Below are positions 1,369 through 18,605 of a DNA stretch of 18,605 nucleotides, in pieces (position 1 is the stretch's first letter; each line of letters begins with the position of its first letter). The position numbers and the translations under genes are program-made. The notes below the pieces were generated by a model, which made no database searches, was not told where the DNA came from, and saw nothing but the letters and a program-made list of their open reading frames with translations. Location: positions 1 through 18,605 of the forward strand of contig JBDRCX010000004.1 of the NCBI GenBank assembly GCA_043821365.1. Direction: 5' to 3'. The stretch comes from Candidatus Micrarchaeota archaeon. Lineage in GTDB: Archaea; Micrarchaeota; Micrarchaeia; Anstonellales; Bilamarchaeaceae.

Positions 1369-1965
1369 ATGGACGATGATAAAATAGTCCTTGATCGTAA
1401 AAGTTTCGAAGCACTTGCAGTTGATAGTAGAGTACGAATTTTGAAATCATTAGAAAAAAGAAGAAAAACACTTTCTGAATTAGCTAAAGAACAAAAAATG
1501 TCAATCTCAGGTGTTAAGGAACACCTTGAAACACTTGAGAATGTTGGGCTAATTGAAAAAATTGATGATGGTCACAAATGGAAATATTATGAGCTAACAA
1601 GAAAAGGAAGGGAGATAGTTGCACCAAAAGAAATACGTGTTTGGATCTTACTTATCATATCCATGTTTGCTCTAGTTATTTCATTGAATAGCATGATCTC
1701 AATGCAAGAAGTACAAACTGCAGATGAACCAATCAGAGCATATGATGAACAATTTATGGTAGCTAGCACATTTGACAATAATACTGAAAATCTTGCTTTG
1801 AATACCGGCGTACAAAGTAAAACAACAAACAAAACAGAAATAGTACAAGATGATATTCCAGAACACACAGGTTTAGTAGAGATAATTATATGGATAAGTT
1901 CTTTGACAATGTTTGGTTGTATAATAGTTTTGATAAAGAACCGACTGAATCTTACCCCCAAATAA
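1369..1965 (+). CDS. Membrane-anchored ArsR-type winged-HTH transcription regulator
   Basis: Residues 1-85 follow the ArsR/wHTH pattern (ALAVDSRVRILKSL...TLSELAKE...VKEHLETLENVGLI...KWKYYELT), followed by a TM helix (VWILLIISMFALVISL), a polar loop and a C-terminal TM helix. Confidence 0.85.
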   Translation: MDDDKIVLDRKSFEALAVDSRVRILKSLEKRRKTLSELAKEQKMSISGVKEHLETLENVGLIEKIDDGHKWKYYELTRKGREIVAPKEIRVWILLIISMFALVISLNSMISMQEVQTADEPIRAYDEQFMVASTFDNNTENLALNTGVQSKTTNKTEIVQDDIPEHTGLVEIIIWISSLTMFGCIIVLIKNRLNLTPK

Positions 1966-10064: not shown

Positions 10065-10238
10065 GTTTTATCAACTCATTTAATAAGAATTTTATAGCTG
10101 TTTGAATGTTAAGAGTTAAAAAGCTTGTTTTAAACCCTACGTTGCGTATCGAATATTAGTTTTAAGGCAAACAGAGCAGAGAATACCTAATTGTTTAAAA
10201 AATTTAGCTGGTCTAGTGTGAACAATGGAGGTAGTATA

Positions 10239-11117
10239 ATGGCACAAGAAATGGGTTTTCAGGCAGGTATAAAAATGGCCATCTTCATGGTAATAGCATT
10301 CTTTCTTCTGATATTTTTGTTCATATTCTTTCCGATCAGAATAATTAATGCTGGTGAAGTTGGAGTATTATTGGAATTCGGTAAGGTAAAGGAAATATGG
10401 CATCCTGGTATGCACCTATTGATTCCGTTTATAAATGAAGTTAAATCAATGTCAACTCAGATACAAAAATTCGAAAGTGACGCATCCGCAGCATCATCAG
10501 ATTTACAGATTGTACAAACAACAATAGCCGTGAACTACAGAATCCAATCTGAAGATATAGATGTACAAAATCTTTATGAAAACTTTAGAGGAGATCATGA
10601 AGATAGGATAATAGATCCAATCGTACAAGAAGTTGTAAAATCAAATACAGCAAAACTTACAGCTGCAGAATTGATAACAAAAAGAGAAACAGTAAAACAA
10701 GTTATTACTGCCGATCTAAAACAAAAGCTAGCAGAATATGACATAACTGTTGTTGCAGTATCTATAACTAACTTTGATTTTTCAGCTGACTTTAACAAAG
10801 CCATTGAAGCAAAGGTGGTTGTAGAACAAGAACTATTACAAGAACAGCTTGAACTTCAGAAAAAACAGGTTGAAGTACAACAGACAATTGCAATAAAAAA
10901 TGCGACTGCAACTGGAATGGTTATTGAAGCTGAAGCATATGCAAAATCACAAGTGTTAATGGCACAAGGTGAAGCTGAAGCAATAGAAACAATAACCGAA
11001 AGTTTAACAGATGAATACATACAATATCTATACGTACAAAACTGGGATGGACAAGTTCCCAAAGTTGTCGGTTCTGGTGAAAGTATAATAGATATCAGTA
11101 GTCTAGTTGAACAATAA
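10239..11117 (+). CDS. SPFH/Band-7 (prohibitin-like) membrane protein
   Basis: N-terminal TM helix, GEVGVLLEFG, PGMHLLIPFI, SSDLQIV, ITNFDFSADFNKAIEAK, coiled coil and WDGQVPKV. ATG 10239 follows a GGAGGT SD (the track start at 10191 is too far upstream). Confidence 0.93.
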   Translation: MAQEMGFQAGIKMAIFMVIAFFLLIFLFIFFPIRIINAGEVGVLLEFGKVKEIWHPGMHLLIPFINEVKSMSTQIQKFESDASAASSDLQIVQTTIAVNYRIQSEDIDVQNLYENFRGDHEDRIIDPIVQEVVKSNTAKLTAAELITKRETVKQVITADLKQKLAEYDITVVAVSITNFDFSADFNKAIEAKVVVEQELLQEQLELQKKQVEVQQTIAIKNATATGMVIEAEAYAKSQVLMAQGEAEAIETITESLTDEYIQYLYVQNWDGQVPKVVGSGESIIDISSLVEQ

Positions 11118-11151
11118 TTTTTTATTTTATTCTTTTTTACGAGGTGGATAT

Positions 11152-11643
11152 ATGAAATTAGATAAAACAGTGGAAAGTGCTTTGAACAAGCAAGTAAATG
11201 AAGAGTTGTATGCTTGGTATCTATACTTGTCAGCAGCAATGCATCTTGAAACAAAAAATTTCGATGGATTTGCAGCTTGGATGAAACACCATGCAGATGA
11301 AGAGATGGAACATGCAAAAAAAATTATGGATTATATAAATGAACGTGGTGGTAAGGTAGTTTTGAAACAGATAACAGCACCAAAAACAGAATGGAAAACT
11401 ATCCAAGAAGTTTTTGAAGATGCTTACAACCATGAATTAAAAGTAACAGAAATGATATATGATCTAAGTAATATTGCAGATGATGAAGATGACTTAACAA
11501 CAGAAACTTTTCTTCAGTGGTTTTTAACTGAACAGGCAGAAGAAGAAAAAATAACAAGTGAATTAGTAGAAAAAGTAAAGATGGCAGGAAATAATATGGG
11601 CGCTTTGCTTATGCTTGATGGAAAAATAATGAAGAAAGATTAA
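11152..11643 (+). CDS. ftnA: Non-heme ferritin
   Basis: Ferroxidase ligands in QVNEELYAWYLY, DEEMEH, HELKVT and EQAEEE. ATG 11152 follows a GAGGTG SD. Confidence 0.95.
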   Translation: MKLDKTVESALNKQVNEELYAWYLYLSAAMHLETKNFDGFAAWMKHHADEEMEHAKKIMDYINERGGKVVLKQITAPKTEWKTIQEVFEDAYNHELKVTEMIYDLSNIADDEDDLTTETFLQWFLTEQAEEEKITSELVEKVKMAGNNMGALLMLDGKIMKKD

Positions 11644-12200
11644 ATTTTTCCTATTAAGTCTGTGCCTGGTTTTAAAGTTTCTTTGCCAGGTTCCCAACTA
11701 GCTGGGCAAACAAGACCGTCATTTTCCGCAACAAATTTTGCGGCTTTTAATTTTCTTATTATTTCTTTTGCATTTCTTCCTATACTATTATCATGTAATT
11801 CAATTGCTTTTACAATCCCTTCAGGATTAATGATAAAAGTACCACGAACAGAAAGACCTTCTTCTTCCATATATGTCCCAAATGCTTTGCAAATTTTACC
11901 TGATGGATCTGCAAGCATCGGATAGTTTATCTTTTTTATTGATGGTGAAGAATCATGCCATGCTTTATGTACAAATGCAGTGTCAATGCTTACACTTAAA
12001 ACTTCGCCACCTAATTTTTTTACTTCCTCGTGATTATCTGCCATTTCCGAAAGTTCAGTTGGGCAAATAAAAGTAAAATCTGCTGGATAAAATAATATCA
12101 ATAACCATTTTCCTTTATAATCAGAAAATTTTATTCTTTTTATTTCTCCACCCACAAATGCATCTGTTTCCAAATCTTGTATTTTATCTCCAATTTTCAT
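11640..12200 (-). CDS. ahpC: Typical 2-Cys peroxiredoxin AhpC
   Basis: FYPADFTFICPTE (peroxidatic Cys), RGTFIINPEG and VCPASW (resolving Cys); SD AGGTGA upstream. Confidence 0.96.
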   Translation of the reverse strand: MKIGDKIQDLETDAFVGGEIKRIKFSDYKGKWLLILFYPADFTFICPTELSEMADNHEEVKKLGGEVLSVSIDTAFVHKAWHDSSPSIKKINYPMLADPSGKICKAFGTYMEEEGLSVRGTFIINPEGIVKAIELHDNSIGRNAKEIIRKLKAAKFVAENDGLVCPASWEPGKETLKPGTDLIGKI

Positions 12201-12204
12201 CTTA

Positions 12205-12339
12205 TCACCTTGAATTAAATAAACATTTTACACATATCCATCCATCCCCACTACCAGAACCGCTTATTGATGAATTGAAATGTGCCTTAACAACAACGCT
12301 AGGAATACTACTGCCACAACAATTACATCTTTCGCTCAT
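12205..12339 (-). CDS. 44-aa CxxC...CxxC metal-binding micro-protein (not in ORF track)
   Basis: Manual translation gives MSERCNCCGSSIPSVVVKAHFNSSISGSGSGDGWICVKCLFNSR. TATA TTATAAAT lies 22-29 nt upstream, and its TGA stop lies inside the ahpC SD. Confidence 0.75.
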   Translation of the reverse strand: MSERCNCCGSSIPSVVVKAHFNSSISGSGSGDGWICVKCLFNSR

Positions 12340-12360: not shown

Positions 12361-12368
12361 ATTTATAA
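12361..12368 (-). promoter_or_regulatory. TATA box for micro-protein/ahpC operon
   Basis: Minus strand TTATAAAT, at a spacing typical of a leaderless archaeal transcript starting at ATG 12339. Confidence 0.55.
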
Positions 12369-12380
12369 TAACAACGGACT

Positions 12381-13352
12381 TTATGTGGAATTTTTCAAAT
12401 ATTTATCAAAAAATATTAAAATTTCTTGTTTGTATGCTGTGGCTATTGCCCTGGTATGGTCATAACCTTCTGCCACCATAAATTTTGCTTCCACACCTGC
12501 ATTAGTCAAATTAGCATAAAAATTTTCACTTTGTGCTGGTGCAACTGTACCATCTTGGTCACCATGGATAATTAGAAATGGCGGATCATCTACTGATATA
12601 TAATTTGTTGCACTTGCAGCTTTAGCTTTATCTAAACATTGTGAAAGTTGACACCCGATTAAGTTTGATTCTGGTGATGTTGGAGAATCATGATCCATAT
12701 AACAAATACCAGAACAATCCCCAGTTAAAGTAACTAAATTAACTGGTCCATACAAATCAACAACTGCTTGTACTTTACTTGAATATCCTAGATTGCCACC
12801 GATATTTCCTTCCAGTTCCTCAACATCTCCAGATGTTCCTAATAAAGATGCTAAATGCCCACCAGCAGAACTACCAATCACTCCTATTTTCTCAGTAGTA
12901 TAATTGTATTTTGCTTCATTTGCCCTTAACCATCTAATTGCAGCTTTAACATCATGTATTTGTGCTGGAAATATTTCGTCTTGACTAAATCTATAATCAA
13001 TGGATGCAACAACATAACCACCATTTGAAATTGATGCTGCAGAGGAGATAACATCATTCTTTGAACCAGTTGTCCAGGCCCCTCCGTGTATCCAAACTAT
13101 TAACGGTAATTTTTCAGTTATGTTTACAGGGGTATATATATCTAGTAATAATGATGTGCCATCGACATTAGCATACTCAATGTTACTTGTTAGAACTACT
13201 TGGCCAGAATCAACTAATGGATTTTGTAAATATGTTGTATTTGATTTGTTGATTTTAGGAAGTTGATGTGATTGATTTTGTTCTTCTACAATCGGTTCTA
13301 TACAACCAAAAGCCAATATGAATATTAAAAATAAAAAGAGTAGTTTTTGCAT
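12381..13352 (-). CDS. Exported alpha/beta-hydrolase (esterase, HSL/BD-FAE-like), lipoprotein-type signal
   Basis: Oxyanion motif IHGGAW, nucleophile GSSAGG, IHGDQD and GYDH; signal peptide ending LAFGC. Confidence 0.9.
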   Translation of the reverse strand: MQKLLFLFLIFILAFGCIEPIVEEQNQSHQLPKINKSNTTYLQNPLVDSGQVVLTSNIEYANVDGTSLLLDIYTPVNITEKLPLIVWIHGGAWTTGSKNDVISSAASISNGGYVVASIDYRFSQDEIFPAQIHDVKAAIRWLRANEAKYNYTTEKIGVIGSSAGGHLASLLGTSGDVEELEGNIGGNLGYSSKVQAVVDLYGPVNLVTLTGDCSGICYMDHDSPTSPESNLIGCQLSQCLDKAKAASATNYISVDDPPFLIIHGDQDGTVAPAQSENFYANLTNAGVEAKFMVAEGYDHTRAIATAYKQEILIFFDKYLKNST

Positions 13353-14904: not shown

Positions 14905-15245
14905 TCCGCACTAACTTTTCGATGAGAACCTATACTCTAAGGTTCGATGAAAACAACAAGTTAGAGTTTTATATGTCTCTCCGATTTTCGGAGAATTTCA
15001 TGCGTGTGAAGTAACGACAAGTTGTTGTTTGTTTTTTTCTATTAAGATTCGCTTCGGCGAATTTTGTGGAATTGAACAAACAAAGGAGATAGTATCATAC
15101 GATAAAATGTTAGATACTTCAATATCTCTGGATTTTATTTGCGACAAGTTTCTTTTAGAAATTTTAGCAAATGAAGTGAAAAACTTAGTAATTAAGTAGT
15201 GTCATATATGCTGGTTTGTGTTGTCGCTTAGGCGATGATACAAAC
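14905..15245 (+). other. Structured 5' leader of pre-23S rRNA
   Basis: Non-coding, with tandem hairpins (GAACCT/AGGTTC, TCTCCGA/TCGGAGA, ATTCGC-TTCG-GCGAAT, and a 14-bp stem at 15214-15245). Confidence 0.6.
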
Positions 15246-16865
15246 AACTATACGCCATTTAGTGGATGGCTTGGCTTGTGCCCGCACAGTCACGCGGCAA
15301 GCGGCGAAACGCCATGGGTAGACGCACGCAGTCTTTGATCCATGGGTTTGACTGAGCACAGTAATGTGCAACAACCCCTTGAAATGAAGCATCTTAGTAA
15401 AGGGTGGAAAAGAAAGCAATGCGATCTGGTTAGTAACAGCGAGTGAAAGCCAGTTAGATCAAACCGAATTCCATCAGGGTAACCTGGTGGTAGATGTGGT
15501 GGGGAGTATCCTTTGTTTGAGTCGAAGTCCGTTGGAACACGGTACCTTAGCGAGTAACAGTCTCGTAGACGAAGGCCAGAGGAACGATCCAAGAAGAGTA
15601 GTGCCCGTTGGATAACGGACATGAACATGGGAGTATCAACTTCTAAATCTAAATATGGGGCGCAAGACCGATAGCGAATCAGTAGCGCGAGCGAACGCTG
15701 AAAAGCACTGCGGGAGCAGTGTGAAAAGAACCTGAAATTAAATGGTTACAGAATGGCAAGGCATAAAAGCGTAGGTTTGTGGAAGCGAATTTGGGTAACT
15801 GAATAAGCGACATGAATTAAGCAGTGTCTTGTCTTTCTTCTCGAAGCAAGAACCAGGGAGTTATTTGATGTGGCGAGACGAGAGTCAAAGCGAAAGCAAG
15901 TGTACGCAGCCCGCAAGGGTAAGGTACGTCGTGGTAATTCGCGATTAGTCACATTGAGTAGACCCGAAGCCATAGTGAGCTACGCCCGAGCAGGATGAAG
16001 CCAATCTGACGATTGGTGGAGGTCCGCAACTAGTGATGGTATATTCCTCTTAGGTGACTTGGGTGTAGGGGTGATAGTCCTGTCGAACATGGCGATAGCG
16101 GGTTCCCTCTGAAATGTCTCTCAGGACAGCGTCTCTGGAGAATGATATAGCGGTAGAGCACTGATCAGGTGGATTGGCTCCGAGAGGGGTCGCCATCTCC
16201 TCAAACTCCGAATGTTATATCTTCGTAGAAGGAGGCAGTCGGGGCGCCGGAGTAAGTCTGGTGTCCCTTACGGGAACGACCGTACGTGAGGCTAAGGGCC
16301 CTAAATGCTAGTTAAGTGTTAATCTGGAAGGAGTTTCTATTCGAAAACAACCGGGAGGTAGGCTTAGAAGCAGCCACCCTTCAAACAACGCGTAATAGCG
16401 GACCGGTCTAGAGTACAGATTCTGAAAATTCACGGGACTAAGCTAGCTTCCGATACCTCACCAATGTAAAAAACATTTGAGTAAGGGGGCGAACGGGTTG
16501 CCTAGAAGCACGGTGGTGACATCGTGTGGAGCGGCCTGTTATGAATATCCTGGTGTAAGTAGCAGCATATCCGGATGAGAATTCCGGACACCTTATAGAG
16601 CAAGGATTCCTCAGCCACGTTCTTCAGCTGAGGGTTAGGCGATCCTAAGGGCCATGGTAACTCCTGAAGCCCGAAATTAGGGAAACTGGTTAATATTCCA
16701 GTCCTATGAAGATAGGTTGCCGCAAGGCGCGCCACATTCTTGACGCTTTTGGATAGGTTGAACATCTTCGGATGTCTGAAGAGGGTAAATTCGCGGAGTC
16801 TTATTGTGAGGAGAAGCGAACGAATCTCGTAGGGGTAACTCGATCAAGTCCAGGGGCCCATGAAA

Positions 16866-16920
16866 GAAACTTTTTGGAAAAAGTTTCATCAAAAACTGAC
16901 CAAAAAGGGTCCATGATAAA
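16866..16920 (+). other. ~55-nt AU-rich insertion in 23S domain III (near E. coli 1570)
   Basis: Removing it restores GGGGCCCATGAAAAG, matching the archaeal GGGGCCCGTGAAAAG pattern. It contains hairpins GAAACTTTT-TGGA-AAAAGTTTC and GACC-N6-GGTC. Boundaries may slip within A runs. Confidence 0.7.
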
Positions 16921-17234
16921 AGATGTGGAACGATTCTTCATAATCGTACCTAGAACCAGTACAGGTGCTCTAGCTGAATAGGCTAAGGTGTGATAGGACA
17001 ACCTAGGTAAGGGAACTCGGCAAAATAGCCCTGTAACTTAGGAAGAAGGGGTGCCATAGCATGAGTAATGTTGTGGTTTCAATAACAAGGGGAGTGCGAC
17101 TGTTTACCAAAAACACAGATCATCGCAGAGCCGAAAGGCTGAGTATGATGGTTGACGTCTGCTCACTGCTAGTACCTGAATATCGGGTTCAACCGGAAGA
17201 AGGGCTAGTAAAGAGCGGGGGTAACTCTGACCCT

Positions 17235-17929
17235 CGACAAAGAGGGGGTCGCAATAAATCTCGCTATATGCTGGAAACCCTAACCGTTTAAAACGGGGAA
17301 GAATACAGATACCGAGCAGGTGAAAATTCTGTTATTCAATTGGGCAATCAGCAGGAAACTAAGGAGGTGGTTTTATGGAATTGAGTAAAATTCCTAAAGA
17401 AAGATACCTCAAATACTATATTGCTGGTTTTGTTGATGGTGAAGGTTGTTTCAGTGTTTCGTTAAAAAAACAAGAAACAACAAGATTCGGATGGGTATTG
17501 GATCCGATTTTTCATGTAACTCAACATAAAAATAGCATAGAAGTACTCGATCTAATAGAGAAGGTACTTAGATGCGGAAGAGTTATAGAAAAACACGGAC
17601 AAAAAGATACCTGTCAGTTCTTAGTAGATAACCGAAGACAACTAAGTGAGAAGATCATTCCTTTTTTTGACAATTATTTGATTGTGAAGAAAAAGGATTT
17701 CAAGATTTTCAAACGAATTGTCCAAGGTTTAGAAAACAAAGAACATACAAAACCAGATAGCTTCCTTGAGCTTGTGAAGCTTGCTTTCTTAATGAATAAT
17801 GAAGGAAAGCAACGCAAATATACATTCAAAGAAGTAGAAAATAGTATAAAAGGATCCTCAGAGACTACACGCGAGACACCAAAAGGTGATGATATAGTCC
17901 AATCCGTACAGTAATGTGCGATACGATTG
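17235..17929 (+). mobile_element. Group I self-splicing intron at 23S position 1923 (695 nt)
   Basis: Exons rejoin to GACCCT|CTTAAGGTAGCG. The 5' exon ends in U paired with G of the IGS (GGGGGTC, P1) and the intron ends in G. Core elements P (ATGCTGGAAA), Q (AATCAGCAGG), R (TCAGAGACTACA) and S (GATATAGTCC) are present, with P3 TCTCGC/GCGAGA, P7 GACTA/TAGTC and P9 GTACA-GTAA-TGTGC. Confidence 0.96.
17375..17914 (+). CDS. Intron-encoded single-motif LAGLIDADG homing endonuclease
   Basis: YIAGFVDGEGCFSV motif, FHVTQ, GRV and IIPFFD typical of the I-CreI/I-CeuI-type fold; strong SD AAGGAGGT upstream; frame intact. Confidence 0.95.
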   Translation: MELSKIPKERYLKYYIAGFVDGEGCFSVSLKKQETTRFGWVLDPIFHVTQHKNSIEVLDLIEKVLRCGRVIEKHGQKDTCQFLVDNRRQLSEKIIPFFDNYLIVKKKDFKIFKRIVQGLENKEHTKPDSFLELVKLAFLMNNEGKQRKYTFKEVENSIKGSSETTRETPKGDDIVQSVQ

Positions 17930-18605
17930 CTTAAGGTAGCGTAATACCTCGCCGCTTAATTGGCGGCTTGCATGAATGACGTAACGTCACTCCCACTGTC
18001 CCTACTTAGGACCTAGTGAAATCACTGGCCAGTGAAGATGCTGGCAACTTCCAGAGGGAAACGAAGACTCCATGGAGCTTTACTATAGTCTGATGTTGTG
18101 GTACGAGATATACTACCAAGCGTAAGTGGGAGCCGTTATGTTGCAGCTTCTGGGTTGCAAATAGGCGAAAGTGTTACACCACTTAGTATATATTGTATCG
18201 CTTACTCGAAAGAGAACAGCGTCAGGTGGATAGTTTGGCTGGGGCGGTACGCCCTCGATAAGGAAACAAGGGCGCCCAATGCTTTGCTCATTCCGGTCAG
18301 AAATCGGAAGTAGAGGGTTAAAGACAAATGCAAGGCTGACTGTATTTTTAAAAGCGTAGAATGCAGAGACGAAAGTCGGGCTTAACGAACCTTGAAATCC
18401 CTTTGATGAGGATTCAAGCTGTCAGACAAGCTACCCTGGAGGTAACAGGCTCGTCGCGGGTGAGAGTACACATCGACCCCGCGGTTTGGTACATCGCTGT
18501 CGGCTTGGGACATCCTGGTCGTGTAGGAGCGGCCAAGGGTTGGGTTGTTCATCCATTAAAGTCCCACATGAGCTGGGTTCAGTACGTCGCGAGACAGTAC
18601 GGTAG

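Follow-up and report, generated by a model that had tools for sequence, protein, structure and literature searches.

A selected Cys4 micro-protein gene upstream of ahpC in a Micrarchaeota archaeon: probably a stand-alone metal finger without a conserved AhpC partnership

The window (the whole 18,605-nt stretch analysed) carries, on its reverse strand, a 44-codon gene for a micro-protein with two cysteine pairs, ending inside the Shine-Dalgarno (SD) sequence of ahpC. On comparative evidence it is a genuine gene under purifying selection, member of an undescribed, very small family restricted to few Micrarchaeota (Anstonellales). The product is probably a stand-alone, treble-clef-like metal-finger micro-protein, behind which a ferritin-ahpC pair would have moved in. 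What is new is this family; its kind, the archaeal Cys4 micro-proteins, is known.

The micro-gene (type A of the family; assigned by ORF, ortholog and family alignment) occupies positions 12205..12339 (-), stop codon included. The frame runs over 44 codons from ATG to TGA (12339..12205) and encodes MSERCNCCGSS...GDGWICVKCLFNSR. Cysteines are at positions 5, 7, 8, 36 and 39, forming the motifs C5-x2-C8-G and W-x-C36-x2-C39, with C8 and C36 28 positions apart. Gly directly follows C8, Trp-Ile directly precedes C36, and residues 23-33 are Ser/Gly-rich. A hidden 44-aa Cys4 micro-ORF had been described here in the first-pass annotation, and its coordinates, Cys positions and spacing were all confirmed from the sequence. 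The motif is rare: of the genome's 3880 ATG-ORFs with 30-70 aa, only 8 contain CxxC-x15-35-CxxC, and shuffled genomes (n=5) give 0-2 each.

The spacer between the esterase stop codon upstream and the ATG of the micro-ORF is 41 nt long. It contains a TATA-like box, TTATAAAT (12361..12368 (-), read from the sequence), at -29..-22 from the ATG, and no SD in front of the ATG. The TATA-like role of TTATAAAT is suggested by its spacing, and the mRNA is probably leaderless, since an SD is absent; a promoter of its own at leaderless spacing had been proposed earlier and agrees with these readings. The SD of ahpC reads AGGTGA (12205..12210 (-)). Its 3' half is the TGA stop of the micro-ORF (12207-12205 within 12210-12205), as had been pointed out, and 4 nt separate it from the ahpC ATG (12200). 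Because of this short spacer and the stop codon inside the SD, co-transcription of the two genes in this genome is likely. As to the translational coupling claimed for the pair, the physical coupling stands and the coupling itself is possible: ribosomes terminating at the TGA may re-initiate on ahpC, which is mechanically plausible.

A six-frame search of relatives gave a single clear ortholog, in the MAG LFW-283_2, 'Ca. Bilamarchaeum dharawalense', Micrarchaeota, order Anstonellales (bioRxiv 10.1101/728089), hereafter G024. It is also 44 aa long and keeps all five cysteines, with an identity of 70% over 44 aa or 76% over 41 aa (tblastn). Nucleotide identity is 72% over codons 1-39 and 45-47% in the flanks, homology stopping right after Cys39, at the junction. 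The 44 nucleotide differences are distributed 11/7/26 over codon positions 1/2/3 (chi-square p 0.001); pS is 0.89 (saturated) and pN 0.20. A paralog pair, one from this genome and one from the relative G015, gives a dN/dS of 0.16. Between this genome and G024 the micro-protein (70-76%) and the neighbouring Band7 protein (70-71%) are equally conserved. Because the ortholog keeps frame and cysteines, synonymous sites are saturated and identity drops outside the ORF, these comparisons identify the micro-ORF as a real gene under purifying selection. Loss of the frame or of the cysteines in relatives had been named beforehand, together with a lack of translation evidence, as the outcome that would speak against the gene; G024 keeps both, and the dN/dS comparison proposed at the same time shows the selection described. 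The fifth cysteine, C7, had been singled out as a feature, and it is shared by the G024 ortholog only and not conserved across the family. The opposite reading, a chance open frame in an AT-rich spacer and no gene, draws on the shortness of the frame, its lack of a database family and a 5.8-billion-sequence collection in which the near-identical protein is its own record only. It is already contradicted by the comparative data, with frame and length conserved, substitutions biased by codon position, identity falling at the ORF borders, start signals carried by relatives and the motif rare in shuffled genomes, and its probability is negligible.

Ten proteins of 41-49 aa make up the family: this genome and G024 have two each, G015 has three and G158 one, and two are metagenome singletons. 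Paralogs number 2-3 per genome (one member found in G158); the second member of this genome is a 44-aa protein encoded on another contig (C6:745420-745554). In the alignment of all ten, C5, C36 and C39 are invariant, C8 is present in 9/10 and C7 is not conserved. The common pattern is M-x3-C-x2-C, a hydrophobic strand (V/I-V/I-K-x-Y/H/I-x-N), a Gly/Ser loop and [DE]-x-[WYF]-[VIL]-C-x2-C-[LFM]-[KR]. Gly follows the first Cys pair in 6/10 members (five with CxxCG; P0004 with Arg for the second Cys) and the second Cys pair in 0/10. GGTGA stands 6-9 nt before the ATG in the UbiX-side (type B) members and in the G158 member, GGTG in the G024 ortholog.

The family HMM matches 7 of 176 genomes of the order (E<=0.01), with intact members in 4 of the 7 on inspection; the other three matches are weak, two having internal stops and one being C-terminally truncated and antisense inside a 373-aa ORF. 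Across the phylum, a sample of 401 genomes gave matches in genomes of family f1 only. Among 1.84 billion representative proteins, a full HMMER pass retrieved 41-46-aa proteins only, besides one CRISPR-array artefact, and no fused or longer forms. No family model of Pfam or NCBIfam matches, with sub-threshold zinc-finger noise only; PHROGs gave nothing better than E>0.01 noise, a word-based protein search the window's own record only, a scan of JGI metagenomes with the two-ortholog alignment no relative, and a genome scan with the same alignment the G024 contig only. ESM Atlas features led to unnamed 'hypothetical' clusters and, at 0.91 with few shared features, to DUF2197, and provided no lead. 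Carrier genomes are 86-89% complete and the family is small, and absences are to be read as 'not found'. The family is young and narrow, with several copies per genome at different gene junctions.

The copies lie at the junctions UbiX/Hjc, ArsR-HTH, Band7, HisRS and HerA-like ATPase. Type B copies are found between UbiX and Hjc, in three close genomes only. The copy of this genome (C6:745420-745554; L009:2001-2135) has a GGTGA SD, a divergent UbiX flavin prenyltransferase gene and a convergent hjc; UbiX is followed by a 374-aa gene without a Pfam match and then by a UbiD-family gene. UbiX and Hjc abut in three relatives, and the type B copy adds ~135 nt at this junction, a clade-specific addition. 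This divergent UbiX ... UbiD row recalls the zinc-ribbon subunit VdcD/BsdD of UbiD decarboxylases, unlike which the micro-protein has no NCBIfam match and measures 44 aa vs about 75 aa. A UbiX/UbiD partner role for the paralog was rejected, the micro-gene being absent from 27 other UbiX loci of the archaeal family. One copy is divergent from an ArsR-type regulator gene that adjoins NifU. The paralog contexts have no common functional theme; the picture is that of a young, duplicating micro-gene settling at gene junctions.

The ahpC gene (11640..12200 (-)) encodes a typical 2-Cys peroxiredoxin of 186 aa (PF00578 6e-37, 1-cysPrx_C), scoring 264.5 bits against TIGR03137 AhpC, just below the 272-bit cut-off. 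The product has the features of AhpC/Prx1: an AhpC-TSA domain, the peroxidatic Cys in a PxxxTxxC-type motif, and VCPxxW. The peroxidatic (FTFICPTE; C46) and resolving (VCPASW; C165) cysteines are invariant in 14 orthologs. Convergent with ahpC is a ferritin gene (11152..11643 (+); PF00210 3e-42), preceded by a Band7/SPFH gene (10191..11117 (+); PF01145), whose ortholog converges on the micro-gene in G024. Upstream of the micro-ORF is an esterase (BD-FAE) gene (12381..13352 (-); PF20434 3e-69). Further genes of the window are two rRNA genes and genes for an ArsR-type regulator, NifU/SufS/SufC/SufB, an AsnC-type regulator, glutamate dehydrogenase (GDH) and a glycosidase. The earlier statement that ahpF, ahpD and trx are not adjacent holds for the whole window, in which none of the three was found. 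The stop codons of ferritin and ahpC overlap by 4 nt (window 11107-11643 / 11640-12200), and the longest ferritin frame (from 11107) overlaps the Band7 stop; the 1.1-kb ferritin-ahpC pair is tightly packed, spacers being absent on both sides. Ferritin mostly stands after ahpC on the same strand in relatives; in the window the two converge.

The pairing of micro-gene and ahpC is, among the genomes examined, unique to this genome, and the loci compared show no conserved partnership. The order in G024 is IU-nucleoside hydrolase, micro-gene, Band7 converging on the micro-gene, GDH, without ferritin and ahpC; the corresponding block of the window reads GDH, Band7, ferritin, ahpC, micro-gene, and the 1.1 kb of ferritin and ahpC is the sole difference. 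No AhpC was found in G024, G015 or G158 (E<=1e-20; completeness 86-89%), so that 3/4 family-carrying genomes are without an AhpC match. A search of relatives for a micro-ORF upstream of ahpC had been suggested with the first description; a co-directional Cys-rich micro-ORF within <=450 nt upstream was present in 0/22 ahpC orthologs of the same family. Ferritin lies downstream of ahpC in eight of these 22, and the antisense footprint of a conserved divergent gene upstream in about ten; this gene was read in one locus only (L035), from its sequence, as an Lrp/AsnC-like regulator. Neither ferritin nor ahpC stands behind Band7 at six other loci of the genus. The first suggestion, that the micro-protein serves AhpC specifically as electron donor, redox sensor or leader-type regulator, is not borne out: the ortholog is not beside ahpC, none of the 22 ahpC genes has the micro-ORF upstream, and the paralogs are elsewhere.

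GGTGA is found 3-7 nt before the ahpC start in 11/13 aligned relatives, the remaining two having GTGAA only. Since it precedes ahpC in relatives without a micro-ORF, the SD is ancestral to ahpC and came with it; the micro-ORF now ends there. In several relatives (L031, L034, L035, L036, L042) a TTTTAAA-type box within GTTCG...CGAAC-like repeats stands ~40-80 nt upstream of ahpC. It has the look of an operator, conserved in this archaeal family, that would control peroxide defence; box and repeats are absent before the ahpC of the window. A thioredoxin gene is present in this genome (C3:16964-17185). No thioredoxin reductase reaches the TIGR01292 cut-off (87%-complete genome), the only candidates being three pyridine-nucleotide-disulfide oxidoreductase frames of 435-476 aa. 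Nothing points to the micro-protein as the reductant of this AhpC, and neither Pfam nor NCBIfam finds a thioredoxin-fold, AhpD-type or flavoprotein domain in it.

In the AlphaFold2 model (8-sequence alignment; mean pLDDT 69), C5/C8 form a knuckle, strands 16-21 and 31-36 a hairpin, and residues 37-43 a helix whose start lies at the second Cys pair. This is the treble-clef order of knuckle, beta-hairpin and ligand pair at the helix N-terminus, seen at pLDDT 69 and with treble-clef domains as neighbours at Z<=3.3 only. In the model the fold looks treble-clef-like rather than like rubredoxin or a classical two-hairpin zinc ribbon. Its neighbours in structure and sequence, all of them weak, are zinc fingers throughout: ClpX ZBD, GATA, FYVE, RING, CsfB, HVO_2753, PHD and LIM; further weak structural neighbours are arenavirus Z, ZZ and eL24. 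No structural match reaches significance (Foldseek at best E about 1; VIA at best Z 3.3), and a PDB sequence profile search gave weak zinc-finger matches only, the best at E 0.0023 (PHD finger).

Rubredoxin and the micro-protein are alike in length, in a CxxCG near the N-terminus and in a Trp-x-Cys-x-x-Cys ~28 residues on. They differ in the aromatic core, missing in the micro-protein, and in the second knuckle: C5-N-C-C8-G fits the C-x-x-C-G of rubredoxin, whereas C36-V-K-C39-L departs from C-P-x-C-G, and the Pro and Gly occur in 0/10 family members. When all six frames of the genome, micro-ORF included, were searched with the rubredoxin HMM PF00301, nothing matched at E<=1, and PF00301 was absent among the E<=10 matches for 8 family members. 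Rubredoxin is absent from the top 50 of Foldseek and VIA-align, where matches are weak and the model has a pLDDT of 69. Of the rubredoxin- or zinc-ribbon-like geometry first ascribed to the protein, the Cys spacing stands; the HMM finds no match and the model is treble-clef-like.

Among known systems, the haloarchaeal C(P)XCG micro-proteins are similar: archaeal, <70 aa, stand-alone and often multicopy, with no obvious feature besides two Cys pairs. HVO_2753 appears as a weak structural neighbour (Z 2.7). In contrast, there is no detectable sequence homology, and the studied family is found in Micrarchaeota. Members of 41-49 aa, unfused, have the size of that class (<70 aa, single finger), but only the first motif is CxxCG, the second, W-x-C-x-x-C, lacking the Gly; the family fits the looser 'two CxxC' description only. 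The first-pass annotation had placed the frame among archaeal CxxC micro-proteins, and in that looser sense rightly: the gene is genuine and encodes a single small two-CxxC protein of that kind. In Haloferax, 9/14 purified C(P)XCG micro-proteins bound zinc, and zinc binding is not inferable from motifs or AlphaFold2 (PMC11241148). A metal finger that acts by binding a macromolecular partner would agree with what has been documented for further tiny C4 fingers, namely the haloarchaeal micro-proteins and Brz (PMC6562870, PMC10716476, PMC2253796) and, by fold, the ClpX ZBD and CsfB. Brz of Halobacterium salinarum is a small protein that has a zinc-finger motif and whose gene stands directly upstream of bop in the same orientation (PMC2253796). 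It regulates transcription of its neighbour, as tested by deletion (PMC2253796), whereas the neighbour relation of the micro-gene is not conserved in the ortholog. The N-terminal ZBD of ClpX and the CsfB/Gin of B. subtilis are similar in size and in predicted topology, in which the helix N-terminus carries the second Cys pair; both comparisons are below significance (ClpX ZBD 2ds5: Z 3.3, rmsd 1.9 A over 33 residues; CsfB 5n7y: Z 2.6). Pfam Gin matches one family member at E 0.0085, below significance, and homology is not claimed.

For the micro-protein we infer metal binding, a finger fold and a binding role, and for its gene co-transcription and possible coupling with ahpC. The two Cys pairs, C5/C8 and C36/C39, would most likely coordinate a single structural metal ion, probably Zn, in a predicted fold of N-terminal knuckle, beta-hairpin and second Cys pair starting a short C-terminal helix. 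By analogy with other single-domain finger micro-proteins, its action would most likely consist in binding a partner, protein or nucleic acid, rather than in catalysis or electron transfer. The ferritin-ahpC pair would have been placed between the micro-gene and its conserved neighbour Band7 in this lineage; insertion here rather than loss in G024 is the simplest history by parsimony over few loci. The ahpC gene would have retained its own SD and lost the regulated promoter/operator region found in relatives. As it lacks that region, it is probably transcribed from the TATA box of the micro-gene, or else by read-through from the esterase operon. The regulated promoter usual for ahpC appears in this way to have given place to the promoter of a micro-gene unrelated to it.

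A dedicated AhpC partner, that is a rubredoxin-like or thiol electron donor or a redox sensor made in step with AhpC via translational coupling, is very unlikely. Consistent with it are the 4-nt spacer and the stop codon within the ahpC SD, the lack of trx, ahpF and ahpD in the window, the lack of a canonical thioredoxin reductase above the cut-off in the 87%-complete genome, and the CxxCG and W-x-CxxC motifs, which we take to resemble rubredoxin knuckles. However, an ortholog is under purifying selection in a genome without detected AhpC and not beside any peroxiredoxin gene, 22 ahpC orthologs are without the micro-ORF, paralogs lie in unrelated contexts, PF00301 does not match, the second knuckle is without the rubredoxin Pro and Gly, and a thioredoxin gene is present elsewhere in the genome. 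Lineage-specific recruitment to peroxide defence, with the Cys4 centre as a redox-sensitive switch or an iron-centred electron carrier, is judged quite improbable. If true, co-expression with AhpC would replace both the Lrp/AsnC-type control of relatives and the missing classical reductase, and a new kind of peroxiredoxin partner would have arisen by gene juxtaposition.

The amino acids of the micro-protein are conserved, with synonymous sites saturated, in an ortholog without a downstream ahpC, its sequence is also conserved in paralogs at other loci, and folding of the RNA around the ahpC SD is no better than that of shuffles (z -0.23). These results make a cis-acting leader peptide or uORF, in which translating the Cys-rich frame tunes ahpC and the peptide itself has no role, extremely unlikely, although the frame is directly upstream, its stop overlaps the SD, and a separate ahpC promoter of the relatives' kind is absent. 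An SD-masking hairpin opened by upstream translation was dropped, the structure of the SD region not going beyond shuffles. A micro-gene that is mobile or selfish, perhaps derived from a virus or plasmid, and that spreads by insertion at gene junctions, any role in the cell being secondary and ahpC its current neighbour, is unlikely too. The patchy distribution, the 2-3 copies per genome, each at a different junction, and the type B copy as a clean ~135-nt addition between genes adjacent in relatives agree with such a history; but the flanks share no repeats or sequence (70 nt upstream, 50 nt downstream, by eye), there is no convincing PHROGs match, a transposase or integrase stands beside none of the copies examined, and purifying selection speaks for a function.

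With this family the small proteome of DPANN archaea, which is poorly charted, gains micro-proteins that are genuine and under selection; genes of this sort mostly escape gene callers and domain libraries. An operon-like junction, with a stop codon within the next SD, can come from recent rearrangement and not from functional partnership, which calls for caution in assigning function by adjacency. The bearing on AhpC biology is little, since the comparative data speak against a specific partner.

Some further features were recorded. The ArsR-type HTH protein of the window (1369-1965 (+)) has a long C-terminal extension, and its gene adjoins the NifU/Suf genes. Its G015 ortholog (L010:1511-2092) has a third-type Cys4 micro-gene divergently upstream; no remnant of such a third copy was found upstream of the window gene (998-1368). 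Two more small Cys4 paralogs of 46-47 aa (G000:C3:104334-104474 and G000:C6:783594-783737, G000 being this genome) are unrelated to the studied family and share CxxCG ... VPFKP ... RPVYCxxCYKPKSRF. The 23S rRNA match (window 15238-18605) extends over 3368 nt, against 2706 model positions, and a 179-aa ORF within it (17375-17914) is consistent with an intron-encoded homing endonuclease.
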